Assembly (NCBI GenBank): GCA_965227885.1
Contig: OZ245781.1
Coordinates: 5,640,694-5,672,693, forward strand
DNA from: Candidatus Azotimanducaceae bacterium
Lineage (GTDB): Bacteria > Pseudomonadota > Gammaproteobacteria > Pseudomonadales > Azotimanducaceae
Reading direction: 5' to 3'
Length of the DNA stretch: 32,000 nucleotides
In this document: piece by piece, positions 2,498 through 26,665 of the stretch
Layout of the letters: each line of letters opens with the position of its first letter
Numbering within the stretch: position 1 is the first letter of the stretch
Notes under the pieces: generated by a model
Told to the model about the DNA's origin: nothing
Databases searched by the model: none
What the model saw: only the letters and a program-made list of their open reading frames with translations
Position numbers and translations under genes: made by a program

Positions 2498-4180
2498 ATG
2501 ACAACCCAGGTACCGAAATTAACTGCTGAGCGGAAACTGCTCTTCCCCCGATTTTCGGTCTGGTCCACGGGGGCACTGCTGATCGCTCTGCCGGTTGCCG
2601 TGCCGATCATCGCGATTATGCTGACCTTCTTTGCACCCGCCAGCGAGGTGTGGCTGCATCTCCGCGAATCGGTGCTGCTGGAATACGTTCTGAACACCAC
2701 AGGACTTTTGATCCTGGTCGGCATTGTCGTCGCACTCTTTGGTCTCTCCACAGCGTGGCTGGTCGCCACCCAGGAGTTCCCTGGCCGCAGATGGATGACC
2801 TGGGCGCTTTTGATCCCTATTGCGGCGCCGGCTTATGTGGTCGCCTACGCCTACGCGGACCTGCTGGCATATACCGGTCCAATCCAGAGTACGCTGCGCG
2901 ACCTGGGACTGGCCGACGGGCCTTTGTTTTCCATCAGATCTCTGCCAGCCGCGGCCTTAATCCTCGGAGCAACGCTCTACCCCTACCTCTATCTCTTTGC
3001 GTTTAACTCCTTCAGTCAGCAGGCACAACCGCTCACTGAAGCCGCGCGCACGCTGGGTGCAAATTCCAGGAGCGCCTTTTTTCGTGTCGCCCTCCCGCAT
3101 GCCAGACCCGCAATTGCAGGGGGCATTGCCCTTGCACTGATGGAAGCTGCGGCGGATTTTGGGGTTGTCGACTTTTTCGGCGTGCCCACGCTCACCAATG
3201 GCATTTTCCGCACCTGGTATGCGCAGGGAGAACATCAGGCTGCGATGCAGTTGGCGGGCTGGCTCTTTGTGGTGGTGGCCAGCCTCGTGGTGCTGGAACA
3301 GCTGGCACGACGGGGCTCGCATGCCAATCCGGTGTCGCGCAACACGCAAGCCCCCCGCCGCAAACAATCCAAAGGCGTCGGCATTCTCTGCCTGGTTGTC
3401 TGTCTGATTCCATTTACTCTGGGCTTTGCGCTCCCGGCAAGCGTACTTCTCTGGCACACCGTCACCGTCGGCGATCCGCTGATGGGATCGCGATTTTTCG
3501 GTTATATCGGCAACAGCGTGATGGTCGCAGGCATCGCAGCAATCGTCGCGACCTTGTGCGCCGTGTGGCTGACATACGCGGTGCGCCAGAACCAAACTAC
3601 CAACAAACGCGTGCTCTCCATCAGCGTGCGCATCGCCACCCTCGGCTACGCTGTACCCGGTATGGTCCTCGCCGTCGGCTTGATCGGGCCGCTCACCGAT
3701 CTGGACAAGTGGCTGGCTGAGAACGTAAATCCCGTACTGGGTTTGCCTGGCGGTTTACTTCTGACTGGTTCGGCGGCAGCCCTTATCTTCGTCTACCTCG
3801 CTCGATTCCTCACCGTGGCATACAACAGCTGCGAAGGTGGCATGGCCCGCATCCATCAACACTACGATGCGGCCGCCAAGAGCCTGGGCGCCAAGCCGGG
3901 ACGCATACTAGCGCGCATCCATACCCCGATTATGACGCCCACAATCCTGACTGCTGTGTTGCTTGTATTCGTCGATGTGGTGAAGGAGTTACCCGCCACT
4001 CTGATCCTGCGTCCATTCAACTTCGAGACGTTGGCGACCAGGGCTTATCGCCTGGCATCAGATGAGCGTATTGCTGAGGCATCAACCGCCTCGTTGCTCA
4101 TTGTGGCTGTGGGTTTGATTCCTGCAGCGATGATTGCCTGGCAGAATTTCGGGCGATCAGATCCTGAGCGAGGCACCTAG
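2498..4180 (+). CDS. Iron ABC transporter permease, fused two-domain (FbpB-like)
   Basis: 560 aa and highly hydrophobic, with two repeated permease halves each carrying an EAA-like loop (TEAARTLGANSRSAFFRVALP and DAAAKSLGAKPGRILARIHTP). It is divergent from the ATPase gene. Confidence 0.9.
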   Translation: MTTQVPKLTAERKLLFPRFSVWSTGALLIALPVAVPIIAIMLTFFAPASEVWLHLRESVLLEYVLNTTGLLILVGIVVALFGLSTAWLVATQEFPGRRWMTWALLIPIAAPAYVVAYAYADLLAYTGPIQSTLRDLGLADGPLFSIRSLPAAALILGATLYPYLYLFAFNSFSQQAQPLTEAARTLGANSRSAFFRVALPHARPAIAGGIALALMEAAADFGVVDFFGVPTLTNGIFRTWYAQGEHQAAMQLAGWLFVVVASLVVLEQLARRGSHANPVSRNTQAPRRKQSKGVGILCLVVCLIPFTLGFALPASVLLWHTVTVGDPLMGSRFFGYIGNSVMVAGIAAIVATLCAVWLTYAVRQNQTTNKRVLSISVRIATLGYAVPGMVLAVGLIGPLTDLDKWLAENVNPVLGLPGGLLLTGSAAALIFVYLARFLTVAYNSCEGGMARIHQHYDAAAKSLGAKPGRILARIHTPIMTPTILTAVLLVFVDVVKELPATLILRPFNFETLATRAYRLASDERIAEASTASLLIVAVGLIPAAMIAWQNFGRSDPERGT

Positions 4181-5019
4181 CCGGTAAACGCTGTCGGCGC
4201 TGCCGGACACTTCACCGTCACACGCTCACCCTTTCTCGACTCTGGATAGTAGTCCCAGACCGCGTGGTGGTGGACAGCTCGGTTGTCCCACAGCACTACA
4301 GATTTCTCATACCAGCGTACTCGGCAGTGGAAGCGAGTGTTTGTTTCAATGTGTCGATAGAGCATGTTCAAGAGCGCATCACTTTCGAATCTGGAGAGCT
4401 CGTTGATCTTGTCGGTGAACGGCTCGTTCACAAACAGTACCGGCTTGCCGGTATCCGGGTGCTGGGTTACCACAGGGTGGCTCGCCTGCGGATAGGTCTG
4501 GCCTGGCTTAGGTTCATAGCCATAGTGGCGGAGATCCTTGAACCCGTCGTGAAACGCCGTGAGGTTCTGCAATAATCCCTGCACAGGCTTTGACAAGGTT
4601 GCGTACGCTTCCTGCATGTTTGCAAAGAGCGTATCACCGCCTCCGCTGGGTGGCACTTCGGTAATATAAAGCGCAGAGGCCATCGGGGGCACAGGTTCAC
4701 AGGAGAGATCGGTATGCCACGACTCGCCGTTGGCCACATCTGTATCTGCGGTGATGTTGATGTTGAAGATCTCAGGGTCTCCAGGAAACCCGAGCTCGGT
4801 TTTCGCCGGATGGGTTTGCAGTTCGCCAAATAGTCGGCCAAAGGCTTTGTGCTCATCCCGCGTCATCTCCTGATCACGAAATACCAGCACCAGATGCTCT
4901 TTGAAGGCCGTTTTAATCTCATCGACGGCCTCATCCGAGAGGTTGGCGAGATCAGCACCCTGCACCTCGGCGCCGAGCTTCGGGGTTAAAGGATCAACGG
5001 TAATGTGTTTGTAGGTCAT
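4177..5019 (-). CDS. TauD/TfdA-family Fe(II)/2-oxoglutarate-dependent dioxygenase
   Basis: 280 aa with the WHTDLS iron-binding His-x-Asp motif, GGDTLFANM, a distal His (HHHAVWDY) and RVTV near the C-terminus. These are typical of taurine/sulfonate dioxygenase relatives. Confidence 0.85.
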   Translation of the reverse strand: MTYKHITVDPLTPKLGAEVQGADLANLSDEAVDEIKTAFKEHLVLVFRDQEMTRDEHKAFGRLFGELQTHPAKTELGFPGDPEIFNINITADTDVANGESWHTDLSCEPVPPMASALYITEVPPSGGGDTLFANMQEAYATLSKPVQGLLQNLTAFHDGFKDLRHYGYEPKPGQTYPQASHPVVTQHPDTGKPVLFVNEPFTDKINELSRFESDALLNMLYRHIETNTRFHCRVRWYEKSVVLWDNRAVHHHAVWDYYPESRKGERVTVKCPAAPTAFTG

Positions 5020-5028
5020 TTTTCTGAT

Positions 5029-5556
5029 TCAGGTTGCGCAATACTTGGGTTCCAGATCCAGAACCTTCAACAATCTGCCAAAGCCGATGTACTGGCCGAT
5101 CATCATGCCCAGCTCCAGCACCTCGGCATCGCTGAATTCTGACTTCAGCTCGGCAAAAAATTCGTCGTCTATGTCATGGTGGCTCACGGCCATGCGTTCC
5201 GCGTACTCAACCGCCAACGCTTCACGACGGGAGAAAGAATTGGTTTCAGCGTCCAACTCTGACACTTTTTCTTCGGTCAATCCTTGTTCCATCGCCGATG
5301 GAAACCGGACGTTCAGTCACGTGAAACAGTCATTAAGACGGGCGATTTTGAGCCGCACCAACTCCTTCAAGTCACCTTCAACGATGCCGCCCTGATGGGC
5401 CGGATAATAAAACGCGTAATACGCATCAAACATCTCCGGCAGGTGTGCAACTGCGCGCAGGGCCGATGCGTCGGTCCCGTTCGCTTCTATCGCTTGTATC
5501 TGCTCCCGCTTATCCGCGGGCAGTTCCTCATCTGAAAGTAGATGTATGCGTGCCAC
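5029..5556 (-). CDS. AhpD/carboxymuconolactone-decarboxylase-family protein with a single in-frame TGA at the CxxC position (candidate selenoprotein, alternatively a nonsense pseudogene)
   Basis: Track ORFs 5317..5556 and 5029..5292 are in the same frame and are separated only by TGA (5319-5317) plus 8 sense codons. The joined product is 175 codons. It reads ...LVRLKIARLNDCFT[TGA]LNVRFPSAMEQGLTEEKV..., which aligns with the CMD-family core (l-a-a-N-x-C-x-y-C-x-x-x-H...G-l-t-e-e-e) with TGA at the second Cys. The start is GTG at 5556, preceded by AGGGGA. Confidence 0.7.
5280..5310 (-). promoter_or_regulatory. SECIS-like mRNA hairpin immediately downstream of the in-frame UGA
   Basis: The mRNA reads UGA CUGAAC GUCC-GGU-UUCCAUC-GGC-GAUGGAA-CAA-GGAU. 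There is a 7-bp perfect upper stem (5303-5297 with 5293-5287) and a G-rich apical loop GGC starting 21 nt after the UGA. A 4-bp lower stem sits across a 3x3 internal loop. Confidence 0.4.
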
Positions 5557-5671
5557 GCTTGTCCCCTGCCTGTATCGTCGAGAACAAGCGTAGCGTATTT
5601 CGCCGCGGCTTACCTCACGACATCAATAGAGGTGGTGTGACGCGAACAGTTGAGCGAAGTTTTATAAAGAT

Positions 5672-6550
5672 CTAACTAAGTGATGAGTCGACGCGCTTTC
5701 TTCTAGCCCAGATGAGCCCGAGCAAACCCGCACCGAGAAGACCTATGCTCGACGGTTCTGGAACCTCAACAGGATGATCTGGCAGTACAACGAGACCTCC
5801 ACCACTGAAATTGGGTCCGATGTCCAACTGGCTGAAACTGCTACTGCTTAGCGTGCCGTCTAACAGTTCCTGAAAACCCGCGAAACTTGCGAGAAACACT
5901 TCGCTCCCACCCTGTCGGTCGTCATCGGATTCGAGCAGCAACTGGTAGTTCATCCCATCGTAGGCAAGACCTCCCGCACTGAAATTGGGTCCGATGTCCA
6001 ACTGGCTGAAACTGCTACTGCTCAGCGTACCGTCTAGCAGGTCCTGAAAATCCGCGAAACTTGCGAGGAACACTTCACTCCCACTCTGTCGGTCGTCATC
6101 GGATTCGAGCAGCAATTGGTAGTTCGTCCCATCGTAGGCAAGACCTCCCGCACTGAAATTGGGTCCGATGTCCAACTGGCTGAAACTGCTACTGCTCAGC
6201 GTACCGTCCAGCAGGTCCTGAAAATTCGTGAAACTTGCGAGGAACACTTCACTCCCACTCTGTCGGTCGTCATCGGATTCGAGCAGCAACTGGTAGTTCG
6301 TCCCATCGTAAGCAAGACCTCCCGCACTGAAATTGGGTCCGACATCGAGCTGACTGAAGGTGCCACTGCTTAACGTACCGTCTAACAGGTCCTGAAAATC
6401 CGCGAAACTTGAGAGGAACACTTCACTCCCACCCTGTCGGTCATTATCGGATTCGAGCAAGAAATGAATCGGTCCCGCGTACGAGATGGCGGGTACTGAC
6501 AAGAAAAGCAAGGTACCGGCGAGTTTGAGGAGCTTGGTTCGAATGTTCAT
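5672..6550 (-). CDS. PEP-CTERM-anchored secreted repeat protein (exosortase substrate)
   Basis: N-terminal signal peptide MNIRTKLLKLAGTLLFLSVPAISYA. The C-terminus VPEPSSIGLLGAGLLGLIWARRKR has the PEP motif, a TM helix and a basic cluster. The body is four tandem 58-aa units. SD GGAGG lies 4 nt before the ATG. Confidence 0.85.
   Translation of the reverse strand: MNIRTKLLKLAGTLLFLSVPAISYAGPIHFLLESDNDRQGGSEVFLSSFADFQDLLDGTLSSGTFSQLDVGPNFSAGGLAYDGTNYQLLLESDDDRQSGSEVFLASFTNFQDLLDGTLSSSSFSQLDIGPNFSAGGLAYDGTNYQLLLESDDDRQSGSEVFLASFADFQDLLDGTLSSSSFSQLDIGPNFSAGGLAYDGMNYQLLLESDDDRQGGSEVFLASFAGFQELLDGTLSSSSFSQLDIGPNFSGGGLVVLPDHPVEVPEPSSIGLLGAGLLGLIWARRKRVDSSLS
5790..6463. repeat. Four tandem near-identical 174-bp (58-codon) coding repeats
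   Basis: The marker string ctgaaattgggtccga recurs at 5805, 5979, 6153 and 6327, exactly 174 bp apart. The units encode LLLESDDDRQsGSEVFLASFxxFQDLLDGTLSSSSFSQLDIGPNFSAGGLAYDGTNYQ with only a few substitutions. Confidence 0.95.
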
Positions 6551-9420: not shown

Positions 9421-9476
9421 GGACTCATAAACAGTCTACGACGAGACTTCCATCCAAGCCAGTGAGGAGGTTAACC

Positions 9477-10613
9477 ATGCACACCACCGTCAGCCTGAAC
9501 GAAACACAACTAGCGGCAGCCACAGAGACATTGTACGCACTCATGTTGGGCGATGATGACTTAAGCCCGTTTTTTGACGGTATGGACGTCGGCAAGATCG
9601 AACATCGTCAGCGACAGTTCTTGAGTCTTGTCATCAATGGTTCACCTGAAAGTTCTCAGGTAGACCTTCGCAAGGTGCACGCACCGCTGCTCGCTCGCGG
9701 CTTAAACCACCACCATTTCGACAAAATGCTTGATCACCTGGAAACCGCACTCGAAGAGGCTGGGGTCGACCCTGCAACTCGAGCTGCACTCGGTGCCCGG
9801 GTGGAAGCGTATCGCGAGGAAGTCCTCGGCGATGACTACACCCACTTCCCTATAAAGGAGAAACCCATGTTTGGACGCATCACCATAGCGCTCTACGCAA
9901 TCGTCAGCTACACCATAGGCATGGCGACTCTGGTCTTTTCAGCCGCCTGGATGGGCGGCTTTCTGGTGCCAACCCCACTGGACGCACCGGCCAGCTTTTC
10001 GGTCTTAGCACTGCTCGCGAATATCGGGCTTGTGGTTATGTTCGGGCTGCAGCACTCGATCATGGCCCGGCCTGCATTTAAGGCAAAGTGGACCAAAATC
10101 ATTCCGCCCGCTGCCGAGCGGTCTACCTACATCCTCGCATCTTCCATCGCGATGTTCGCCATGATGTGGTTCTGGCAGCCCTTGGGTGTGGACATCTGGC
10201 GTCTGGACGGCGCGGCTGCAGTCGCGCTCTACGCCCTCTTCGGGGTCGGTTGGGTCATTCTTGTGAGTTCAACCTTCTTCCTCAACCATTTCGATCTCTT
10301 CGGTCTGCGGCAGGCATGGTTGAACTTGCGGGGAATGCCCTATACCCACGTGCCTTTCGCCACCCCTGGTTACTACCGCTGGGTGCGCCACCCGATCTAC
10401 GTCGGTTGGCTGGTTGCAATCTGGGCTACCCCTACCATGACGATTTCCCACCTGGTGTTTGCGCTTGCGACCACGGTCTACATCCTGGCGGCCATCCCCA
10501 TGGAAGAGCGTGATTTGGAGGCAATGTTGCCTGAGTACAAGGATTACAAAGCCACCACACCCTCCCTCGTCCCGCGACCACAGACCAAAACACCAAAAGA
10601 ATCTGTGGCTTAA
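9477..10613 (+). CDS. Fusion protein: N-terminal truncated hemoglobin (group I 2/2 globin) plus C-terminal MddA/ICMT-like polytopic membrane methyltransferase
   Basis: ATG at 9477 is preferred over the track GTG at 9462, because GAGGAGG sits 6 nt upstream. Residues 1-120 carry trHb hallmarks (TLYALM B10 Tyr, SPFFDG, QRQFL, KVHAPL proximal His, FDKMLDHLETAL). Residues about 131-378 are hydrophobic. They carry LQHSIMARPAFKAKWTKIIPPAAERSTYIL, NHFDLFGLRQ and YRWVRHPIYVGWLVAIWATPTMTISHLVFA...MEERDL. These match methanethiol S-methyltransferase (MddA) / isoprenylcysteine carboxyl methyltransferase-fold proteins as I remember them. Confidence 0.8.
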   Translation: MHTTVSLNETQLAAATETLYALMLGDDDLSPFFDGMDVGKIEHRQRQFLSLVINGSPESSQVDLRKVHAPLLARGLNHHHFDKMLDHLETALEEAGVDPATRAALGARVEAYREEVLGDDYTHFPIKEKPMFGRITIALYAIVSYTIGMATLVFSAAWMGGFLVPTPLDAPASFSVLALLANIGLVVMFGLQHSIMARPAFKAKWTKIIPPAAERSTYILASSIAMFAMMWFWQPLGVDIWRLDGAAAVALYALFGVGWVILVSSTFFLNHFDLFGLRQAWLNLRGMPYTHVPFATPGYYRWVRHPIYVGWLVAIWATPTMTISHLVFALATTVYILAAIPMEERDLEAMLPEYKDYKATTPSLVPRPQTKTPKESVA

Positions 10614-10774: not shown

Positions 10775-11323
10775 ATGCTAGGTACGGTGACGGATGAAAC
10801 CTTAGTAACACGCGCATTGGCGGGTTCTAACGGTGCCTGGACAAAACTGGTGAAGAGGTATGAAAAACGCGTGTACAACTACGCTCTGAGAATGGTCGGA
10901 CACCCCGATGATGCATTTGATCTCATGCAGGAGGTGTTTGTCGGCGTGCACAGGAATCTTGGCAGTTTCCGAGGCGATGGCGCGTTCCCGGCATGGCTCT
11001 TTCGGATTGCCAGCTTTCGCTGCACCGACTATCTGCGACGTCGCAAGCATCACGAAGAGTTTGATGATGAACGCGGTTTCCTGAACGGTTCACCAGGACC
11101 CGAGGAACAGACGTTTACCACACACGCCAACCAGCAGATTACACGCGCGCTGAACACCCTACCGGATGATCAACGCCAGGTTGTGGAATTGAAATTTTTT
11201 CAGCATTTCACGTTCGAAGATATAGCAGGCCAATTGGGTATATCACCCAACACCGCCAAAACCCGCTTGTACAGTGCGCTGCGCAAGCTGAAACAGCACG
11301 AGGGTCTTAGAGATGCGCTGTGA
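10775..11323 (+). CDS. ECF-family RNA polymerase sigma-70 factor
   Basis: 182 aa. The region 2 motif DAFDLMQEVFVGVHRNLGSFRG...FPAWLFRIASFRCTDYLRRRK and the region 4 motif QRQVVELKFFQHFTFEDIAGQLGISPNTAKTRLYSALRKL are both present. Confidence 0.9.
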   Translation: MLGTVTDETLVTRALAGSNGAWTKLVKRYEKRVYNYALRMVGHPDDAFDLMQEVFVGVHRNLGSFRGDGAFPAWLFRIASFRCTDYLRRRKHHEEFDDERGFLNGSPGPEEQTFTTHANQQITRALNTLPDDQRQVVELKFFQHFTFEDIAGQLGISPNTAKTRLYSALRKLKQHEGLRDAL

Positions 11324-11963
11324 AGAAGTAAGTGAACTACTCATCGAATACGCGGAAGGTACGCTACCGCCGGATGTTGCCGCCCAGGTAGAAGCGGCTC
11401 TGCCCGGCTGTGATCAGTGTCAGGAAGATCTCGCGGCCATAATGGAATTCCGTACCATGGCATCCAGTTGGCACGATGAGGTTCCTCCCGCCTGGAAGAT
11501 TCCGGAGGTCAGCAACCAAAGCGCTGGCATCGGCGATTTTCTGGAAGGCTTTCGCCAATGGTTCCCAACGTTTGCTTCTGCCACAGCTTTAGTTCTGGTC
11601 GCTGTCCTGTACGCGCAAACACCAGCGCAGACGGGTCAGCTGCCATCCGGGCAGATGACCGACTATGAATCTCTGCCGCAGTTGCCGACCGCAACTCAGG
11701 CTGCATTTGACTCAGCGCTGGAGACCAACCGAGAACAACGTAAGCAGGAACTGACCACTCTGCTGGAAATGCTGACCGCTGAGATGAACCGGCGGTCGCT
11801 GGAAACGGAAGAGAGTATGCGTTTCCTAATCTCCTCACAAATAGAAGAACAACGCGAGCTGGATCAACTGTATCGCCAGGTTGATGCCCTTCTGAAAGAC
11901 GGACAGGCCAGCGTCGACCAGCCCGCAACCGAGACGCCGCAGGCCGAAGGAGTAAACCAATGA
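11313..11963 (+). CDS. Anti-sigma factor (zf-HC2-like N-terminus, single TM)
   Basis: It overlaps the sigma gene by 11 nt. The N-terminus is MRCEEVSELLIEYAEGTLPPDVAAQVEAALPGCDQCQEDL, followed by a TM helix FPTFASATALVLVAVLYA and a periplasmic C-terminal part. Confidence 0.75.
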   Translation: MRCEEVSELLIEYAEGTLPPDVAAQVEAALPGCDQCQEDLAAIMEFRTMASSWHDEVPPAWKIPEVSNQSAGIGDFLEGFRQWFPTFASATALVLVAVLYAQTPAQTGQLPSGQMTDYESLPQLPTATQAAFDSALETNREQRKQELTTLLEMLTAEMNRRSLETEESMRFLISSQIEEQRELDQLYRQVDALLKDGQASVDQPATETPQAEGVNQ

Positions 11964-13708: not shown

Positions 13709-14578
13709 TTATTTAGCCTTTGATCTAGATTTAGATTTTGCCTTGGTTGCGCTCGGCTTTCTACTGGCACGTGCCGCCGTTTTGCGTTTTCCGCCGGATT
13801 TTCCATCCCCTTTGCCATCCACAGAGGCTTTGAGTGCCTCCATGAGATCGACAATCTTGTTCTCTTCGGCCGCCTCGGTGGGCACGCTGATTTCCTGGCC
13901 GTCAATTTTCTGCTGAATCAGCTCCATCATGCGTGAACGCACCACATCCTCGTACTGGTCAGGCTGGAACTCTTCATTAATCCGTTGCTCAATGATTTTC
14001 ACCGCCAGATCGAGCTCTGCCGCTTCCACCTCACAGGGCTCCAGAGGCACATCCTCAAAACTTCTGAGCTCGTCCTGGTGCTTCAACTGCTCCATAACGA
14101 GTCCATCGCCCATGGGACGCAGCAGCACCAGATGGCTTTTGCCACGGGCCGCATAACTGGCAAGGGCTGCCCGCTCGGTGGTGGCCAGCGCTTCTTTCAA
14201 GAGGTGATAGGAGCGAGCTGCACCTTTATCCGGGCCCATGTAGTAGACCTTGTCGATGTAGATGCGCTCTATCTCTTTTAACGGAACAAACTCTGCGATA
14301 TCGATGGCGTTGGTGGATTCAACGTTCATCGCTTTCACTTCGTCCTGGGTGAAGGTGACAAATTGGCCTTTAGCAAATTCGTAACCTTGCATCAGTTCTG
14401 AGCGCTCAACCGTATCGCCCGTATCGGCGGCCACGTATTGCTGTTTTACGCGGGAACCGTCTTCGGTCAGATAGTTGAAACGAATCGCTTTGGTGGAATC
14501 CACCGTGGAATACAGTTTGATCGGAATGGAAACCAGTCCGAATGAAATGGTGCCGGAACCAATGGCTCGTGCCGCCAT
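13709..14578 (-). CDS. ku: Non-homologous end-joining protein Ku
   Basis: MAARAIGSGTISFGLVSIPIKLYSTV... is the canonical bacterial Ku N-terminus. The protein is 289 aa with a Lys/Ser-rich basic tail. SD AGAGGAGG lies upstream. Confidence 0.95.
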   Translation of the reverse strand: MAARAIGSGTISFGLVSIPIKLYSTVDSTKAIRFNYLTEDGSRVKQQYVAADTGDTVERSELMQGYEFAKGQFVTFTQDEVKAMNVESTNAIDIAEFVPLKEIERIYIDKVYYMGPDKGAARSYHLLKEALATTERAALASYAARGKSHLVLLRPMGDGLVMEQLKHQDELRSFEDVPLEPCEVEAAELDLAVKIIEQRINEEFQPDQYEDVVRSRMMELIQQKIDGQEISVPTEAAEENKIVDLMEALKASVDGKGDGKSGGKRKTAARASRKPSATKAKSKSRSKAK

Positions 14579-14680: not shown

Positions 14681-17185
14681 TTGGCAAATCAGGCAAATCC
14701 GCAGCTGTCGACCTATCGGGACAAGCGTGACCCCACGCAAACCCCCGAGCCGTTCGGGCGGATACACATCCCTGCCACCGGCAAACTCTTTGTCGTGCAG
14801 CAACATGCCGCTTCGCACCTGCACTTTGATCTGCGGCTGGAGCTGGGTGGTGTGCTGAAGTCCTGGGCAGTACCCAAGGGGCCCTCGGACGACCCTGCGG
14901 ACAAACGTTTTGCCGTGGAGACCGAGGACCATCCGCTCGACTACGCAGATTTTGAGGGTGAGATCCCTGCAGGTAACTACGGCGCGGGACAGGTGATCGT
15001 GTGGGACCGCGGCACCTATGTAGCCAACGAACCCTTCGAGCGCGGCTTTGAGCGCGGCAAATTGTTGTTTGAGTTGAAGGGTCACAAGTTGAAAGGCACC
15101 TGGACCCTGGTGCGTTTAAAAACCAAGGACAGCACCGGCAAAGAATGGCTCCTGATCAAAGAGAGCGACGCCTACACCTCGGATAACGGCCCCACTTACC
15201 AGCATCATTCTGTACTGAGCGGTCTCACCGTTGAGCAGTTGCTGAAACCTGCAGGCAAAACCGGTGCGCTCACGAGAGCACTCAAAAAACTACCCGGCAT
15301 CAAGCAAGCGCCTATCGCCAAGGTCTCTACCAAACCCATGCTCGCCACCGCGGGCGAACCCAACGTGCGCAAAGGCTGGATCTGGGAACTGAAATACGAC
15401 GGTTATCGCATACTGGCAAAAAAGGCCCACGGCGAAATCACACTGATCACCCGCAATGGCCTGAACCTGAGTGATCGCTTTCCAGAGATCTGCCAGGTGT
15501 TGGCGCATCTACCTGCCGAAGAATTCATTCTTGACGGCGAACTGGTGGTTAACAATCATCTGGGACGCCCTTCATTTGCGCTGATGCAGCAGCGGGCAAG
15601 ATCCACCTCTGCACACCTCGTCTCAGCTGCTGCCATTGAGCTGCCGGCCAGTTACTACGCGTTCGACCTGCTCTATCTCGAGGGTGTCGATCTGCGCGGG
15701 TGCAAGCTCACCGACCGGAAAAAGATACTCAAGACTCTGCTGCCACCGCAGTCGGCGCTCATCTACTCAGAACATATAGAGGGTAAGGGACCGGAGACCT
15801 ACAAGACCGCCAAAGAGATCGGCGTTGAGGGTGTGGTGGGCAAACGCGGGGATGGTAAATATCAACACGGTCGCAGCCAGGATTGGGTGAAGGTACGCCA
15901 TAACCGCACCACCGAGTTTGTGGTGGTCGGTTGGTCTGGCAGCCGCTCGAACACGAAGGATATCGGCTCGCTGGCCCTCGCTGAGTATCGAGGTGCCAAG
16001 CTAAGTTTCGTCGGCAACGCCGGTTCTGGACTATCAGGCGCCCTGCGTGAACGCCTGGCAAAAGCATTGAAGCCCCTTGCACGCAAATCCACTCCTCTCG
16101 ATGAAATGCCGGAGCTGACAAAAGAAGTTCACTGGGTGCGTCCCAAGCTGGTGGTGGAAGTCGCCTATGCCGAGTACACGCCCTACGGGCACCTTCGCCA
16201 CCCCAGCATCCAGCGACTGCGTGAGGACAAGGAACCCCAAGAATGTATCGGGCTTTTCGACAGCGTGGAAACCACCGAGATTGCGGCTCCCGCACCCGAA
16301 AAGGTGGTGGTTACCAACCCCGACAAAATGTTCTTTCCCGAGCCCGGCTACGTGAAGTCTGATCTGGTGGACTACTACCGGGGTATTGGCAAGTGGATGC
16401 TACCCCACCTGGCAGATCGTCCAATTGTGATGACCCGCTACCCTGATGGTGTAGACGGAAAATCTTTTTACCAGCGAGACGTGCCGGACTATGTACCGGA
16501 TTGGTTGCGGCGTGAGGTGCTGTGGAGCGAATCCACCGAGCGCGAAGTGCACTACTTTATTCTCCGCACCGACGAAGACCTGGCCTATCTCGCCAACATG
16601 GGCACCATCCCCATCCACATGTGGCACGCCACCATCAACGACCTGGATCATCCTGATTGGTGCGTGTTGGATCTCGACCCAAAGAGCGCGCCCTTCAGCG
16701 ATGTGATCACGCTTGCACTTGCTATTGGCGAGCTCTGCGATGAGGTGGGCTTGCCCGCCTATCCCAAAACCAGCGGCGCCAGCGGTTTACATGTGCTCAT
16801 CCCGCTCGCGCGGCAGCTTACCCATGATCAGTCACAGACTCTGGGAGAACTTCTGGCCAAGGTGATCGTGGACCGGTATCCGGAGATCGCAACCATCACC
16901 CGTCAGGTGCGCGCTCGGGGTAGCAAAGTCTATGTGGATTACCTGCAGAACGGGCACGGACGTTTGATTGTGGCTCCGTTTTCAGCCCGCGCGGAGCAAG
17001 CAGGCAGCGTCTCCATGCCTTTGAAATGGTCCGAAGTGAACAAAGGACTGGCCAACCACAAATATCATCTCGGTAACGCCGTCGCACGCATGAAGCGGTT
17101 AAAAGAAGACCCCACCGCCAATATGCTGACCGATGAACCGGACCTTCTGGCCGCGCTCGCGAACTTAAGCGAGATACTCGACTGA
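14681..17185 (+). CDS. ligD: ATP-dependent DNA ligase D, three-domain form (phosphoesterase - ligase - polymerase/primase)
   Basis: PE domain: YRDKRDPTQTPEP...FVVQQHAASHLHFDLRLELGGVLKSWAVPKGPS. Ligase domain: adenylation motif ELKYDGYR. Pol domain: VTNPDKMFFPEPGYVKSDLVDYY...IVMTRYPDGVDGKSFYQRD...KTSGASGLHV. The only in-frame start upstream of the PE motif is TTG at 14681, 10 nt after AGGAG. Confidence 0.95.
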   Translation: MANQANPQLSTYRDKRDPTQTPEPFGRIHIPATGKLFVVQQHAASHLHFDLRLELGGVLKSWAVPKGPSDDPADKRFAVETEDHPLDYADFEGEIPAGNYGAGQVIVWDRGTYVANEPFERGFERGKLLFELKGHKLKGTWTLVRLKTKDSTGKEWLLIKESDAYTSDNGPTYQHHSVLSGLTVEQLLKPAGKTGALTRALKKLPGIKQAPIAKVSTKPMLATAGEPNVRKGWIWELKYDGYRILAKKAHGEITLITRNGLNLSDRFPEICQVLAHLPAEEFILDGELVVNNHLGRPSFALMQQRARSTSAHLVSAAAIELPASYYAFDLLYLEGVDLRGCKLTDRKKILKTLLPPQSALIYSEHIEGKGPETYKTAKEIGVEGVVGKRGDGKYQHGRSQDWVKVRHNRTTEFVVVGWSGSRSNTKDIGSLALAEYRGAKLSFVGNAGSGLSGALRERLAKALKPLARKSTPLDEMPELTKEVHWVRPKLVVEVAYAEYTPYGHLRHPSIQRLREDKEPQECIGLFDSVETTEIAAPAPEKVVVTNPDKMFFPEPGYVKSDLVDYYRGIGKWMLPHLADRPIVMTRYPDGVDGKSFYQRDVPDYVPDWLRREVLWSESTEREVHYFILRTDEDLAYLANMGTIPIHMWHATINDLDHPDWCVLDLDPKSAPFSDVITLALAIGELCDEVGLPAYPKTSGASGLHVLIPLARQLTHDQSQTLGELLAKVIVDRYPEIATITRQVRARGSKVYVDYLQNGHGRLIVAPFSARAEQAGSVSMPLKWSEVNKGLANHKYHLGNAVARMKRLKEDPTANMLTDEPDLLAALANLSEILD

Positions 17186-19304: not shown

Positions 19305-19919
19305 CTAGCTCGATTCTAAGAACTCTTGCGCGAGAAAGAAGCCCGCATCTGCTGCCTCTCTAATCAGCGCCATCCCCGCGGCACGACTTTGATCGAGGAT
19401 CTGGTTGCCTTTTACAAACATCGCCTCAGGGTGCTTGGACACAACAGCGCGGTCTAACCACTTTTCGTACTCCTCGTGATTTTCCTCAAGCCCGCACCAA
19501 CCATATTGGTATTGAGTGGCTAAATGGAATTGAGCCTCTGCGTGTCCTCCCTGCGCTGCAGCGCGTATGAGTGAAATCGCTTTTGTTTCGTCGATGTTGG
19601 TGTGATTTCCATACTGATAAATCTTGCCAAGTGCCAAAGATGCATTCAAATCGCCTTGTTTAGACTGTTTGTCTAGAAGCACCCTTTGCCTTCTAAACCA
19701 GAATTCAGAAGTTGAAATACTAGTCTGTACTCCGTCTCCAGTACTATAAATCAGACCTAAATAAACGCACGCCTGAGCTTCCCCATGATCCGCTAGTTCA
19801 CGAAACATTTCGATCGCGCGCTTCATCTCATCTCGCTCATAAGCCTGTACCGCACGATCAAACGAGGCTTTGAGCTCACTGTCGCTAGTAACAGACAAGG
19901 GAATTAGAGGGACGTACAC
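19305..19919 (-). CDS. Sel1-like repeat (SLR) protein, no signal peptide
   Basis: Repeated A-x-x-W/Y-x-x-A-A-x-x-G-x-x-x-A-Q-type units are present (HGEAQACVYLGLIYSTGDGV; GDLNASLALGKIYQYGN; ISLIRAAAQGGHAEAQFHLATQYQYG; GMALIREAADAGFFLAQEFL). GTG start with AAGGA upstream. The sequence is visibly more AT-rich than the flanking core genes. Confidence 0.8.
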   Translation of the reverse strand: MYVPLIPLSVTSDSELKASFDRAVQAYERDEMKRAIEMFRELADHGEAQACVYLGLIYSTGDGVQTSISTSEFWFRRQRVLLDKQSKQGDLNASLALGKIYQYGNHTNIDETKAISLIRAAAQGGHAEAQFHLATQYQYGWCGLEENHEEYEKWLDRAVVSKHPEAMFVKGNQILDQSRAAGMALIREAADAGFFLAQEFLESS

Positions 19920-19957
19920 TTCCGTCCTTACACTTGATCATCCGACCAGAAATCGTC

Positions 19958-20509
19958 TCACCAACCATATAGCTCTACGTTACCTTTTTCGTCTTCTACT
20001 TGATGCGTGATTCCCTCAAACAGGACGTAGTCGACGCGTAACAACCCTAAATCTTCATATTGCTTGTCCGCCACGTGAAATAAGGCAATGGAGCCTCGCC
20101 CATAGTGAGCGATCACCTTCAAAAGCCCTAGGTCCGTCAATCGCTCCACTACTTCTATTCTTTCTGGCGTCCCTATCGAGCAAGGCAACAACCCTCGCAA
20201 CTTTTCGTAATATCTCGATGGCTCAGTAGCGTCAGACAATAGAGTTTTCTTGCAGTGATGCTCGTGTAAATAAGATTGGCTTGCAGCTACTTTGATACCG
20301 CTAGATTCCAAGCAAACTGATAACTGGGTTAGCCATTCTTTGTCGTTTCCGACACCGGAGTACATTTGTTGATGAGCAATCGTTGGTGCTGTAGGTCCTA
20401 ACAATGTAGCCAGAAACTTCTCAGCGTTGACTCTGACCTCCTCTTCAGAGTACTTTTCGGCCCATAGGCTAATCGGTAACATCGCAATCACGAACACTAC
20501 CAACCTCAT
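19958..20509 (-). CDS. Hypothetical exported protein, candidate cognate immunity protein for the RHS C-terminal toxin
   Basis: Its ATG overlaps the RHS stop codon (ATGA at 20506-20509). N-terminal signal peptide MRLVVFVIAMLPISLWAEK. The gene is AT-rich. I recognise no family. Confidence 0.6.
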   Translation of the reverse strand: MRLVVFVIAMLPISLWAEKYSEEEVRVNAEKFLATLLGPTAPTIAHQQMYSGVGNDKEWLTQLSVCLESSGIKVAASQSYLHEHHCKKTLLSDATEPSRYYEKLRGLLPCSIGTPERIEVVERLTDLGLLKVIAHYGRGSIALFHVADKQYEDLGLLRVDYVLFEGITHQVEDEKGNVELYGW

Positions 20510-23500
20510 TGGACTATCACCGGCAACGGATTGGTAGGAGATGGGTTGTACTGTTTTAACCGTTGCAAGAATGGTCCAGTGTTCGGGTCAGAGAGACCAA
20601 TGCACCCGATTGTTCCAGGCGCATTGCCATCTGCATGTAACCCACACCTTCCTGTTCCCCCCTGACTGGCTAGCGTGCACCGTGGCTGACCAGTAGTCGG
20701 GTCTATCGGAACCGGAAAGTGCGGCACAAGAGGCGAAAACCAACAGTTTCCCGTTCGATCGCAATAGGCCGATTGAGCTGGCGTTACTGGCGGTGCAGTA
20801 ATCGTGTAAATGCCGTCAGGAGTTGGACCATTTAACAGGTTTGGATTTGGTTGACTAGGAATTCCACTATTCGCCGGATAAACGGTGACGTTTTGCCCTT
20901 CTTCACCTGATACCCAGCTGAGCTGCTGCTTCGAGCGATCATAAACCAAGTACTCAACAAGACCGTAGATATCCATTCGGCTTAGCGGATTTCCGATAAC
21001 ATAGCTATACCGATTAAGCCCCCCGTTGAGGCCAATCGGATCACTCTGCGTATACCTACCAAGTGGAGCGTCATACGTCCTAAAGTAGTTGTAATACTGT
21101 CCAGTTTCCATATCGAAATACTGGCCTGGAAATCTCAGATTAACTGTGACATCCGTCATATCTCCATCGGGATCTTCATTCGGCGCAGCCGCTCCAAACG
21201 GATCGCTATCCCATCGCCACACAATGGTGCCGTTAGAGTTCGTCCCTAGCCGTGGCGTACCTAAGTGGTCCGCGTGCAACCAGGTCGTGATACCGCCCTC
21301 AATTTGTGCCAGTGGCACACCATCAATATAGACATACTCTTTCAAGGCAGTACCGTTGTTGTACTCCCCAATCAACGTACCGCTCTGATCAAACACATAG
21401 TCGATATCTGAGCCACTGGCGACCTTGTTCACCCGCTGCCCAAGAGCGTTGTAGACATAGGTAGCCGTGAGCGTGCTGTTGTCGGTGACCGTTGCAACTC
21501 GGCCCATCTGATCATAGGTATAGGTCCGGCTACCGCCGCCATCGGTCAAGCGGTTACCAGCTGAATCATATGTGAGTGCGGCACCAGATTGAGATACCAA
21601 TCGATTGTCGTTCGCACCGTAGGTGTGGCTTTGCGTAATGCCACTCTGTGTTTCACTCAATCGATTGCCGACGGCATCGTATGTGTAGGTAACTTGAGCA
21701 GACCCTGGAAGTGTGTAGTCGTCCAATCGATCCAGATTGTCGTATCCAAACGCTTCGTTGCCACCAGGCTTGCTGAGCTGAGTGATGTTACTCACCGCAT
21801 CATAGGTGTATGCCCAAGATTCATTGAGACCACTGCTCGCCACTGTTTGGAGGTACGGCGCCAACGCTTTGGTCTGGCGCCACCATGTCTCGTCCTCTTT
21901 GAGGAAGACACTGACCGAATCCTTCGTACGGAGCGCACGCACCGCTGTTGCTGCTAAACGTTCGTTTGTCATCGGCTGAAGCACGGGGACACCATCGGGA
22001 TCCAGTTGATAGAGCGAGAACTGCTGAGCAGGCTCGTCGTAGAGTGCAATCAGTGTCCCTGGTGTTAGCCACCGGTCCAGGTTGTTAGGCAGCTGCTTGC
22101 CTTTCACTTGCACCACCGGCGGTGGTTCTTCGCCCTGTCGGATGCGCTGGCGAATATCGGATACACTGAGCGCATGATGGAAGAATGCTACTTCGTCAAC
22201 GTTTCCGTCCACGGGTTTGCTGCTGTAGCCCATCAGATAAAAATCAGTGGTCACTGAGTGAGCGTTGACTGTTGGCAATGTAAGAGAACTGTCCAAATCT
22301 CCATCAATCCAGATTTCCAACTTGCTGCCGCGTCGGACAAACGCACAGTGGCGCCATGTATTGTCATCCAGATTGTTTGCGTTTGAGCAGAGTCGATATC
22401 CTGAAAGGTTGGCGTCACGGAAGGTGAGATGTCCTACATTGGTCGTAGTGTCGCATCGGTTAATGAAAAGGTATGGACCCCAACTGCCATTGCGAATACC
22501 GCCAAAGTTGCGGTTCGAGCTGGTATTAAATTTGAAATACCCTTCGATGGTGTAGTCCGCTGAAGGAGACAGAGCGGGATCGTTCGGCACCTGGATCCAA
22601 GCACCATTGAATAACACACTTTCACCGGTCGTGATCGCACCTGCCTGGGCTTGGGTGTACGTCCCATAATAAGAACCATTGTGGTTATTGCCAGATACAT
22701 CCGACACCGTGCTTGTGACGTCATCCATTGGCCAATGAGTGATTGGAGTGTCAGCTGCAATACTGGCCGCATAGCCAAGTGGATTCAGTCGCGGGTCTGT
22801 ACCGGCGACGTATTCGTCATAGGCTGTGGCGCCGTCGCCATCAACATCTGACGTAGCGTCATTGGCATCCTCGGGGTCATGAAAAGTGGCTATCTCGTGA
22901 TGAGTAGGCACACCGTCATTGTCTTTGTCACCCATACTCATAAAGCGAGCGACGATTTCTCCCTGGGTAAGGGAACGGGACGTCAACGCCACGCTGTCCA
23001 TGGTGCCCTCCACATCCCACGAGTGGTAGTAGTGATCCATGATGTTGAGCGGCGCGTAATTCACTAAGGACGGTCCCGCGTAGGGCTGCGCATCCTGAAG
23101 CTCTCCGTCTACCCAAAGCTCAAGATTACCGCCGCGTCTTGTTGCTACAACGTAGTGCCACTCTCCACGAGCAAGATCATCGCTTTTGGAATACACGTTG
23201 AACTGATTGTCCTCCACAAACTTGATCTTTCCTGAGCCTGTGGTACGAATCTGCCAACCGTTATGCGTCATCAAGTTTTTCATGCCCACCAACAAACCAG
23301 TGCCTTTGGTGGTCCACTTCGCGAGAAATTCGACCGAATAGTCCCCAGAGAAGGCGAAGCGACTGTCGTAAGCCACCGAGACCTTACCGTTATCAAAATC
23401 GACCGCAGAACCCGTTGGGAGCGGGCTGGACGAGCTAAGCGTATGTGTACCTTGATAGGAACCATCCAGGTTGTTCGACGTTTCATCGGTTGCTGTGCTA

Positions 23501-25272
23501 CCAGACGTCTCATCAAGCTTCCAGAACGCGAGCGGGGAACCTGCCGTGACTGCAGAGCCATAGCCTGCGTCATTCACAAACGGGTCGGTGTTTGCGAGAT
23601 ACTCGTCATAGTTGCTGACCCCGTCGCCATCAATGTCGCTGACCGCATCTGATGCATCGTTCGGATCCATCCCCATCGTGGTTTCCAGAGCATCGCTCAA
23701 CCCATCACCGTCGCTGTCAACGAAACCAGGGTCGGTGATGTTCACCGTCACCGTCGCGAAGTTGGAAGGTCCAGCGCCATCCGAAACCTGGTAGGTAAAC
23801 GAATCCACATAATCTGTAGAACCGGAAGGGCTGTAGGTGATGGTTTGGTCACCATTGATCGTGACAGTGCCATTGGTGGGCAAAGTGACGTTCGAGACCG
23901 TTAAGGTGTCGCCATTTATATCGCGGTCGTTGGCGATGACATCGATCGCAACGTCCTGTCCGATATGAGTTGCGGCCGTGTCTGAATAGGCGACAGGGGC
24001 TCCGTTGTGGCTGTCGGTGAGTGTGATGTTGTTAATGCGCCCTGCCGCGTCATAACTCCGCGTCTGAAAAGTACCGTTGCCATAGTTAAGGGCACTCAGC
24101 GCGCCACGCCCGTCAAACTGCGTGGCATCAACCAAATACTCCGTCACACTCGCGAGCGTATGGTCGACGGTCAGGACTCGTCCCAACGCATCGCGTGGGG
24201 TGTCCACTACCCTGCCGCTCGGGTAGGTGGTGCTGGTGACCTGATCCAACAAATCGTAGCTGTAACTCACCGTGTAGGTGGTCCCGGCGATCACCCGCGT
24301 GTCCTGGGTGGCGTTGCCCCGGTCATCAAACGTATAAATGGTTGAACCTGACGCGTCGGTGAAGCTACTGAGCCGTCCTAAGGCATTCGCGCCACTATCA
24401 TAGGTGTAGGTGATGTTTTCTGCCGGTCCGGCCGGGTACGCAATTGAGAGTAAACGGTTGAGCGCATCGTAAGAGTAATCAGCAACCACGCCCCGCGCGT
24501 CTGTTTGTTGCGTTAGATTTCCGGCTGCATCGTAAACGTAGGTGGTGGTACCTGCATCTGCACTCACTTCCTGGATAAGGTTGTCCAACCCGTCATAAAC
24601 GTAGGTTGTTACCACGCCCCTGGGGTCCGTGACGCTGGTCAGGTTACCCCGGGCGTCATAGGTCTGTTGTGTCACCCCGCTGGCAGCGTCGGTCGCGGAA
24701 GAAATCTGCTCAAGCGCGTCGAATGCCTGGGTTGAAGATCGCGACAGCGCATCCGTCGTCTCGTCCAAGTTGTCATTCAGGTCGTAATCGTACTGTGTGG
24801 TGTTGGTAAGTCCGTCGATCACAGACCGAAGTCGACTCAGCTCGTCAAAGGTCTGACTCTGGCTCTGAATGAGCGTCCCGCCAGGCCCCCTGGTGTCCGT
24901 TTGTGTAATATTACCGTCTGCATCCAACGTGTATTCCACACGACCATCCGCACTGTCCTGCATGGCTATCAGGCGTTGTGCGGCATCGTATTCGTAGGTG
25001 ACAAAGGCACCCGTGGGGAGGTCCATGCGGGTGATCAACCCCGCCGCGTTGTACGCGAATGCTGTCGTTACATCGCCCTGGCTCGATTTGACAGTGCGCG
25101 AGATCAGCCTGCCTCGTGCATCGTAGGAAAGCTCGGTGCGCAGATCGTTTACATCGTCAAGAACGGTGGGTAATCCGCGCGCGTCACGGCTGATCACTTC
25201 GGTGACGTGACCTAAGGCATTTGTGACTGTCGTCAGGTCCGGCTCTACCTCATTAACGGGGGACACCGGCAT
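20506..25272 (-). CDS. RHS/YD-repeat protein with cadherin-like, TSP3-like and two LamG domains, an RHS core and a Tlde1/DUF2778-like C-terminal toxin domain; 5'-truncated and IS-interrupted, with the apparent start inside the IS inverted repeat
   Basis: There are dozens of YD repeats (YxYDxxGNL/R). [16 protein letters not shown] is cadherin-like, and DSDGDGLSD...[13 protein letters not shown] and DKDNDGV...[13 protein letters not shown] are calcium-binding TSP3-like runs. Two LamG/ConA-like modules are present ([42 protein letters not shown]). The RHS core is [11 protein letters not shown]...[60 protein letters not shown], followed by a 150-aa CT. The first 10.7 codons ([11 protein letters not shown]) are encoded by the IS left inverted repeat. 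Confidence 0.9.
   Translation of the reverse strand: [1588 protein letters not shown]
25233..25240. repeat. Target-site duplication, left copy (TCAGGTCC)
   Basis: This 8-bp string directly abuts the IS left end. It is identical to 26553-26560, which abuts the right end. Confidence 0.85.
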
Positions 25273-26552: not shown

Positions 26553-26560
26553 TCAGGTCC
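26553..26560. repeat. Target-site duplication, right copy (TCAGGTCC)
   Basis: Identical to 25233-25240 and directly abutting the IS right inverted repeat. Confidence 0.85.
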
Positions 26561-26588
26561 CCATTGCTATCGTAGGCGACTAAAAATA
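26553..26588 (-). pseudogene. Displaced upstream remnant of the same RHS reading frame
   Basis: Removing the IS and one TSD copy joins ...ATA TTT TTA GTC GCC TAC GAT AGC AAT GGG GAC CTG ACG ACA GTC..., giving (I)[20 protein letters not shown]. This is a perfect YD repeat continuing the RHS frame. The frame has no start codon and runs straight into the tRNA. Confidence 0.6.
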
Positions 26589-26665
26589 TGGCGCGCCCGG
26601 TAGGACTCGAACCTACAACCCCCAGGTTCGAAGCCTGGTGCTCTATCCAGTTGAACTACGGGCGC
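26589..26665 (-). tRNA. tRNA-Arg (anticodon TCG)
   Basis: Minus-strand 77-mer GCGCCCGTAGTTCAACTGGATAGAGCACCAGGCTTCGAACCTGGGGGTTGTAGGTTCGAGTCCTACCGGGCGCGCCA. It has a 7-bp acceptor stem GCGCCCG/CGGGCGC, a D arm GTTC/GAGC and an anticodon stem CCAGG/CCTGG with loop CTTCGAA. The T arm is GTAGG-TTCGAGT-CCTAC, and CCA is encoded. Confidence 0.9.

Follow-up and report, generated by a model that had tools for sequence, protein, structure and literature searches.

AhpD-like selenoproteins with a Cys-x-x-Sec motif (CxxU, where U is selenocysteine, Sec) were reported in 2005 as a new family from the Sargasso Sea metagenome, with 27 sequences and a figure of the selenocysteine insertion sequence, SECIS (PMC1088965). 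The 2008 analysis of the Global Ocean Sampling (GOS) data counted 299 Sec forms and 902 Cys homologues of 'AhpD-like 1' (COG2128, CxxU) together with 70 Sec forms of 'AhpD-like 2' (pfam02627, CxxU), and ranked AhpD-like proteins among the most abundant marine selenoprotein families (PMC2398784). The family is also listed in BSepDB and in a 2026 review, which ties it to the model TIGR01926. Here we analyzed a gene (5556-5029, minus strand) in a 32,000-nucleotide stretch of contig OZ245781.1 from Candidatus Azotimanducaceae bacterium, referred to below as the window. We conclude with high confidence that it encodes one 175-residue protein of the carboxymuconolactone decarboxylase (CMD)/AhpD-like type, in which the UGA at codon 80 is decoded as Sec within the motif Cys77-Phe-Thr-Sec80. 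The conclusion is supported by a conserved UGA, the pairing of Cys and Sec at this position, a downstream frame that is translated, a conserved and covarying hairpin, and the fold family of the product.

The window gene shares with the known AhpD-like selenoproteins a CMD/AhpD-type product of ~180 amino acids, the CxxU motif, many Cys homologues, and a small-loop SECIS with a conserved G just downstream of the UGA; the known family is abundant in marine and aquatic metagenomes. The difference lies in the family model, with the window protein scoring 32.9 bits against the TIGR01926 cutoff of 81.8. The gene very probably belongs to the known AhpD-like CxxU family (published reference sequences AACY01418594 and MCB9421940.1), to which it was likened by motif and description. 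Fragments of its homologues carry the JGI name 'alkylhydroperoxidase family enzyme', which we take to be the name of COG2128, and the CxxU motif of 'AhpD-like 1' is present.

Translation of the minus-strand frame (528 nt, 176 codons) showed a single internal stop, with 79 codons before the TGA and 95 codons between it and the terminal stop. The first half starts as M(GTG)-A-R-I-H-L-L and ends as N-D-C-F-T; past the TGA (5319-5317) the frame continues with L-N-V-R-F-P-S-A-M-E-Q-G-L-T-E-E-K and runs on to E-P-K-Y-C-A-T and the final TGA. The N-termini of aligned homologues likewise read M-[AS]-R-I, which supports the assigned start of the coding sequence (CDS). With Cys placed at the internal stop, the joined product passes the Pfam CMD model (PF02627, 28.5 bits with a threshold of 23) and aligns end to end with homologues of ~180 amino acids. 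Of the TGA sites in the window, 21 are flanked on either side by 60 or more open codons, and only the one at 5319-5317 lies in a real coding frame and is accompanied by a SECIS-type hairpin. A previous reading of this DNA, made from the sequence alone (the sequence-only reading), had proposed two open reading frames (ORFs) in one frame parted only by this TGA, a joined product that is CMD/AhpD-like over its whole length, and a TGA that falls on the second Cys of CxxC. The translation and alignments bear out the first two points, and the third agrees with the Cys found at this column in Cys-form homologues and with the second Cys of solved CMD structures.

Conservation of the TGA was assessed in a one-genome-per-species scan, which yielded 80 loci, nearly all from uncultured Pseudomonadales and including Candidatus Azotimanducaceae, an OM182 bacterium and a Halioglobus metagenome-assembled genome (MAG). 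Their products are 54-78% identical to that of the window gene, and the codon after C-x-x is TGA in 80/80 loci and Cys in none. Another 76 TGA forms and three TGC forms came from a scan of metagenomes that started from Cys forms; with four more Cys-form loci fetched singly, the totals came to 140 distinct TGA-form downstream sequences and seven Cys-form sequences. When the joined product was searched against protein databases, full-length matches at 45-53% identity had C-x-x-C at the site. The TGA column is Cys in homologues P0008-P0039 and TGC in the seven Cys-form DNA loci, in motifs such as C-Q-T-C. Sec and Cys forms interleave, the Cys-form protein P0023 being 78% identical to the Sec form L090 and 63% identical to the nearest Cys form; judged from sequence, this closeness is consistent with repeated Sec/Cys exchange. 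The question raised by the sequence-only reading, namely whether orthologues carry Cys or a TGA with a hairpin at this codon, is answered by TGA in every species genome and in the 76 metagenome homologues, and by TGC in the distant homologues.

Four of the loci (L018, L028, L072 and L078) carry a Pseudomonadales-type gene with 55-68% identity and the same SECIS in MAGs that bear the labels Klebsiella pneumoniae, Desulfobacterales, Cryomorphaceae and Limisphaerales. Mis-binning or mislabelling is a likelier source of these odd labels than horizontal transfer.

The same database search showed how the gene is represented in public catalogues. Seven full-length entries (P0001-P0007, 53-58% identity) read C-F-T-W, two N-terminal fragments terminate exactly at N-D-C-[FD]-T, and ~35 fragments of ~96 amino acids (65-72% identity) begin just past the TGA site. 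The 'W' of P0001-P0007 is TGA in the DNA, mistranslated by a gene call under genetic code 4 (e.g. L002:170-721). The window gene itself is split into ORFs of 79 and 87 amino acids in the ORF listing and in public gene calls. The gene and essentially all of its orthologues are thus wrongly annotated, whether as two short unnamed ORFs, as ~96-residue fragments or as code-4 Trp translations. One of the code-4 entries, P0007 (299 amino acids), even runs through the genuine TGA stop at the end of the gene and continues as a fusion with the following gene (PF07978).

Directly downstream of the UGA lies a hairpin whose first loop base is the 21st nucleotide after the UGA; the spacing of 20 nt between UGA and loop (5316-5297) is identical in all aligned forms. 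The isolated element (5310-5279) folds with a minimum free energy (MFE) of -11.8 kcal/mol (z = -2.2). According to the consensus published for bacterial SECIS (bSECIS) elements, the apical loop measures 3-9 nt and the upper stem 4-16 bp, G occupies the first two positions of the loop, UGA and loop lie 16-37 nt apart, and the MFE is -7.5 kcal/mol or lower (PMC13188914). The window element has a 3-nt loop on a 7-bp stem, GG, 20 nt and -11.8 kcal/mol, which places it within the consensus on all four counts, and 130/140 TGA forms reach -7.5 kcal/mol or lower over 47 nt. With the E. coli fdhF-type SECIS and the consensus bSECIS (bSECISearch) it shares a stem-loop directly 3' of the UGA within the coding region, a small apical loop containing G, and a spacing of 16-37 nt; the likeness to the fdhF-type element is one of geometry, and the apical loop here is a GGC/GGG triloop.

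Because the energy of a single sequence is weak evidence, the case for the hairpin rests on covariation, which was evaluated in a gap-free alignment of 77 sequences (A2) with the helix at columns 31-38/42-49. Standard pairs fill 92.9% of the helix cells, versus 40-59% after a shift of the 3' partner by 1-3 columns; 6/8 pairs have changes on both sides (118 cells in all), and none of 500 shuffles matched the observed pairing or covariation score. RNAalifold, unprompted, predicted the identical helix. The stem register is common to all 140 distinct TGA forms, at least 7/8 pairs being present in 136 of them, and the upper stem measures 7 bp in the window gene and 8 bp in most orthologues. Within this one register the two arms take forms as different as UUUCCAUC/GAUGGAAA, UACGCGUC/GACGCGUC, CUUCUGCA/UGCAGAAC, UUUCUGUC/NACAGAAA, AUCCCUUC/GAAGGGAC, CUCCUUCA/UGAAGGAC, UUUGCAUC/GAUGCAAG, UUUGCAGC/GCUGCAAC, UACGCACC/GGUGCGUG and UUUCCGUC/GGCGGAAA. 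The stem is kept while the hexapeptide that it encodes varies (FPSAME, LLQGAE, YASATR), and the RNA structure itself is therefore under selection. The loop starts with G in 140/140 TGA forms and with GG in 137/140, column 39 of the A2 alignment being invariant.

Six of the seven Cys forms have no hairpin: five retain 1-4 of the 8 register pairs, and L172 is essentially stemless (core MFE -0.9 kcal/mol). The hairpin described in the sequence-only reading, with a 7-bp stem and a G-rich loop from 21 nt past the UGA, was found where it had been placed (5310-5280), and the conservation check suggested there returned compensatory changes in TGA forms and loss in six of the seven Cys forms.

The codons past the TGA evolve like those before it. 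Nei-Gojobori medians for the window gene against 81 other TGA-form genes were pN 0.28 and pS 0.78 upstream of the TGA and pN 0.24 and pS 0.77 downstream; against the closest relatives, dN/dS downstream was 0.07-0.15, the same as upstream, with synonymous sites saturated. Arg84, which lies four codons past the TGA and five before the sole candidate restart codon, is invariant in 144/144 TGA forms while being encoded by several synonymous codons, and Leu81 is kept in 123/144. No in-frame ATG, GTG or TTG occurs within 24 codons past the TGA in 63/144 TGA forms, and no other disrupting change was seen in any orthologue. This pattern of substitution indicates that the reading frame past the TGA is translated and is under purifying selection as strong as that before it.

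We next turn to the protein family and its active site. The best sequence matches among solved structures are CMD proteins of the PA0269 type (2o4d, 2ijc, 7xw1), with E ~2e-8 over residues 54-162, across the UGA; in the alignment with PA0269/P. aeruginosa AhpD, C-F-T-U-L-N-V-R lies over C-A-Y-C-V-N-M-H. These proteins differ from the window family in being shorter (145-165 amino acids), in having no counterpart of the N-terminal ~50 residues, and in carrying His in place of Arg84. Of the motif E-x11-CxxC-x3-H, which we take to be the AhpD active-site signature, the window protein has Glu65-x11-Cys77-x-x-Sec80, and the His position is occupied by Arg84, a residue that is invariant in both the Sec forms and the Cys forms of the family. 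As read from the alignment, the family signature is a variant, E-x11-C-x-x-U-x3-R, with Arg in place of the relay His, which is a modestly new point.

An AlphaFold2 (AF2) model was made for P0010, a Cys homologue that shares 47% identity with the window protein; it is all-helical (pLDDT 85.9) with the CxxC at a helix N-terminus. Foldseek matched this model with a TM-score of ~0.72 over 169-186 columns to 2oyo, 6k40, 3c1l, 2prr and 2pfx; for 2oyo, 6k40 and 2prr the probability was 1.00 and the match covered 169 columns. These 'peroxidase-related' AhpD-type structures of ~185 amino acids, among them D. radiodurans AhpD (6k40), share the full-length all-helical fold and are also sequence-profile matches; they differ from the window protein in being only 15-21% identical and in being Cys proteins throughout, and their folds were compared through the P0010 model. 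In that model one domain spans the position of the UGA, and a 79-residue product could not form the fold. More distant is the debrominase Bmp8 (6ohi/6ohj), a thiol-dependent reductive dehalogenase of the same fold class (Foldseek E 9e-4, TM-score 0.68), which is 16-18% identical and a weak sequence-profile match; Bmp8 shows that the redox cysteines of the CMD fold are capable of chemistry besides peroxide reduction, and nothing found points to halogenated substrates for the window protein. Canonical M. tuberculosis AhpD (1knc) is not a close match (Foldseek E = 4.3, TM-score 0.45) and is related at the level of the superfamily only.

A further conserved Cys is found near the C-terminus. The motif E-P-K-[YF]-C, which contains Cys173, is kept in the Sec clade of the window gene and in the distant Cys forms P0033-P0039, is missing from the nearest Cys forms P0008-P0031, and was present in 84/144 TGA forms by a loose motif count. 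From this distribution, Cys173 could be a third redox-active residue.

Taken together, these data suggest how the gene would be expressed and what its product would do. The hairpin past the UGA would act as a bacterial SECIS, with a 12-nt spacer, an upper stem of 7-8 bp and, 20 nt past the UGA, an apical triloop that begins with GG. By analogy with established bacterial Sec insertion, SelB-GTP-Sec-tRNA(Sec) would be recruited to the apical part of the hairpin and would deliver Sec as the UGA enters the A site. Most likely, the protein so made is a small thiol/selenol oxidoreductase of the 'peroxidase-related' AhpD type. The attacking nucleophile of M. tuberculosis AhpD is the second Cys of the motif. 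Sec80, in the place of the second Cys of CxxC, would cycle between a selenol/thiol state and a Cys77-Sec80 selenenyl-sulfide, with the invariant Arg84 presumably replacing the His of the E-x11-CxxC-x3-H relay, and the protein would act as a peroxide or disulfide reductase, as other AhpD-type proteins do.

Several observations weigh against Sec decoding in a CMD/AhpD-like protein. The fold of the hairpin is not exceptional in its 71-nt context (z = -0.06), and the 7-bp core alone, at -7.0 kcal/mol, just misses the -7.5 threshold without the lower stem. Nor is the stem wholly confined to TGA forms, as the Cys form L086 keeps 7/8 stem pairs. The three NCBIfam models that the protein touches all score it below their curated cutoffs: TIGR01926 'peroxidase-related enzyme' (scores given above), NF053654 'YciW-related (seleno)protein' (64.4 versus 310) and NF041047 'GSU3128 family (seleno)protein' (19.9 versus 110). 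Finally, the Sec machinery was not encountered. The window has no selA, selB, selC or selD (ARAGORN and Rfam gave tRNA-Arg only, and Pfam gave no Sec genes), a result that is uninformative in that ~38 kb of a 6.13-Mb contig, ~0.6% of the source genome, was read. ARAGORN found zero tRNA genes on 60 related loci, and tblastn of E. coli SelA, SelB and SelD (approximate query sequences) against 1.08 Mb of fetched DNA gave no match, which is likewise uninformative for so tiny a share of each genome.

Two of these observations can be placed further. NF053654 and NF041047 are related selenoprotein-containing CMD families and not the family of the window gene, which profile comparison assigns to the CMD/AhpD superfamily but to no currently modelled NCBIfam subfamily. 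The L086 gene (L086:1501-2049, on metagenome contig Ga0193699_10000001) is a TGC form with a GGC loop and 7/8 pairs in the SECIS register; its stem may be a fossil SECIS left after a recent Sec-to-Cys switch.

Among other explanations of the in-frame UGA, the one that survives best, although we consider it very unlikely, is hairpin-stimulated read-through without selenium, in which a near-cognate standard tRNA (Trp, Cys or Arg) would decode the codon with no SelB or Sec. UGA-C is a leaky termination context, and the base after the UGA is C in 127/140 TGA forms and invariant in the 77-sequence alignment (A2 column 19, window position 5316); this C is due in part to the Leu81 codon (CTN), and selection for weak termination may contribute as well. 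That no Sec machinery was seen in the DNA searched would fit such read-through as well. On the other hand, the stop coincides exactly with a catalytic Cys column for which Cys-form homologues exist, the specific bSECIS geometry is present down to a small apical loop at 20 nt that invariably starts with G, AhpD-like proteins are an established Sec family, and Trp or Arg at the redox position would destroy the CxxC chemistry.

Even less credence is due to a split gene, whose halves would be made separately, the second by re-initiation at the ATG at 5292, and would then assemble into one CMD fold. The window does offer an in-frame ATG (Met89) nine codons past the TGA, and the catalogues list the two ORFs of 79 and 87 amino acids. 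However, a nearby in-frame restart codon is missing from 63 of the 144 TGA forms, conservation at the protein level extends over the stretch from the TGA to Met89 (Arg84 and Leu81, see above), and the ATG itself lies within the 3' arm of the conserved stem.

The sequence-only reading had named a recent pseudogene as its alternative, that is, a TGY-to-TGA nonsense mutation in an ordinary Cys-type CMD gene. One substituted base would indeed be enough to give the identical sequence, and gene callers do split the gene, but this is barely conceivable for a TGA shared by all 80 species genomes and 76 metagenome homologues with saturated synonymous sites. The 140 distinct sequences show that the loci are not duplicates of a single sequence from assembly, and purifying selection acts on the 95 codons past the TGA as strongly as on those before it, with no other disruptions in orthologues; the alternative is refuted by TGA conservation and downstream selection. 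A reassigned genetic code with TGA read as Trp or Gly, to which the W of P0001-P0007 might point, is of negligible probability, given that those W residues are TGA in DNA under a code-4 gene call and that TGA terminates 8/24 window genes and the AhpD-like gene itself in 44/82 orthologues. We thus rejected the split-gene, pseudogene and altered-code readings on the conserved TGA, the translated downstream frame and the normal use of TGA as a stop. Sec decoding at the second Cys of CxxC, as first put forward from the letters of the DNA, agrees with the conserved TGA, the covarying hairpin and the purifying selection on the downstream frame. The coordinates of the gene, its functional sites and its downstream neighbor are collected in Table 1.

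Table 1. Positions in the window of the selenoprotein gene, its functional sites and the adjacent dioxygenase gene
Feature	Position	Strand	Details and basis
AhpD-like/CMD selenoprotein CDS	5029..5556	-	175 amino acids, GTG start 5556-5554, Sec codon 80, TGA stop 5031-5029; translation, Pfam CMD, full-length alignment
Shine-Dalgarno-like AGGGGA (putative)	5562..5567	-	5 nt 5' of the GTG start; read from the sequence
Cys77 codon TGT, first residue of C-x-x-U	5326..5328	-	12 residues past Glu65 (E-x11-C); Cys77 and Glu65 invariant in alignment
In-frame UGA read as Sec80	5317..5319	-	directly after Cys77-Phe78-Thr79; aligns with the second Cys of CxxC
Bacterial SECIS element	5280..5310	-	lower stem 5310-5307/5283-5280, 3x3 internal loop, upper stem 5303-5297/5293-5287 (7 bp), apical loop GGC 5296-5294
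Arg84 codon CGG	5305..5307	-	His position of the AhpD E-x11-CxxC-x3-H signature; invariant
Cys173 codon TGC in C-terminal E-P-K-[YF]-C	5038..5040	-	candidate resolving/partner thiol; alignment
TauD/TfdA-family Fe(II)/2-oxoglutarate dioxygenase	4177..5019	-	Pfam 3.7e-60; 9 nt past the stop of the selenoprotein gene

In the window, the TauD gene is probably co-transcribed with the selenoprotein gene; a scan of 4000-5800 for promoters and terminators gave nothing beyond shuffled expectation. Across 82 loci, only L008 has a TauD orthologue as the next gene downstream (72% identity), L025 has a distant TauD paralogue in that place, and there is no conserved neighbor family, the commonest occurring in 16/82. 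The adjacency is a local, lineage-specific arrangement and not part of a conserved system. Of the operon with TauD that had been proposed, the adjacency at 9 nt stands, while the notion of a conserved partner does not, the pair being kept in only one other species (L008).

The contig represents 6.13 Mb of a metagenome-assembled genome, and the order of genes around the selenoprotein gene is a PEP-CTERM repeat protein upstream and TauD followed by an ABC transporter downstream. The upstream neighbor (5672-6550, minus strand) encodes a 292-residue secreted protein with a PEP-CTERM-type C-terminus (a weak Pfam match) and contains an array at 5793-6459 of 3.8 tandem copies of a 174-bp (58-residue) unit with 92% identity, which points to a recent repeat expansion.

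Farther along the window, the region 19305-26665 contains a 1588-residue RHS-repeat/LamG/cadherin-like protein (20506-25272, minus strand), a 183-residue ORF without a Pfam match that overlaps the end of the RHS gene by 4 nt, and then a Sel1-repeat protein; the RHS protein and the 183-residue ORF look like a polymorphic toxin with its immunity gene. An ISL3 transposase (25303-26508) and a tRNA-Arg(TCG) (26589-26665) adjoin the RHS region, which suggests an island inserted at the tRNA. Divergent genes for Ku (13709-14578, minus strand) and LigD (14681-17185, plus strand) form a bacterial non-homologous end-joining module. A 378-residue protein with a bacterial globin domain (9462-10613, plus strand) adjoins an ECF sigma/zf-HC2 anti-sigma pair (10775-11963); the globin protein exceeds the usual length of truncated globins and could represent a fusion or a sensor.

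The analysis reveals no new mechanism. What is modestly new is the His-to-Arg signature, the fixation of Sec in all 80 sampled species of uncultured Pseudomonadales, and the near-universal mis-annotation of the gene. A more far-reaching interpretation, which we hold to be unlikely, is that the gene represents a distinct, unmodelled AhpD-like subfamily, E-x11-C-x-x-U-x3-R, with Sec fixed across aquatic Pseudomonadales (Azotimanducaceae/OM182, Halieaceae-like), which would imply selenium dependence of these abundant heterotrophs and a chemistry for which Cys is inadequate. If so, the enzyme might catalyze something other than peroxide reduction. One possibility is a reductive, thiol/selenol-dependent reaction of the Bmp8 kind, which in the lineage of the window could be linked to the TauD-type dioxygenase encoded alongside.

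None of the curated NCBIfam models covers the subfamily, and the set of 140 sequences with a covarying SECIS would support building one. The gene identifies uncultured aquatic Pseudomonadales, a large group, as organisms that use selenocysteine; on Sec use in OM182, Halieaceae or Azotimanducaceae we found no literature. It also offers a textbook case of an RNA-structure constraint shaping a coding sequence.

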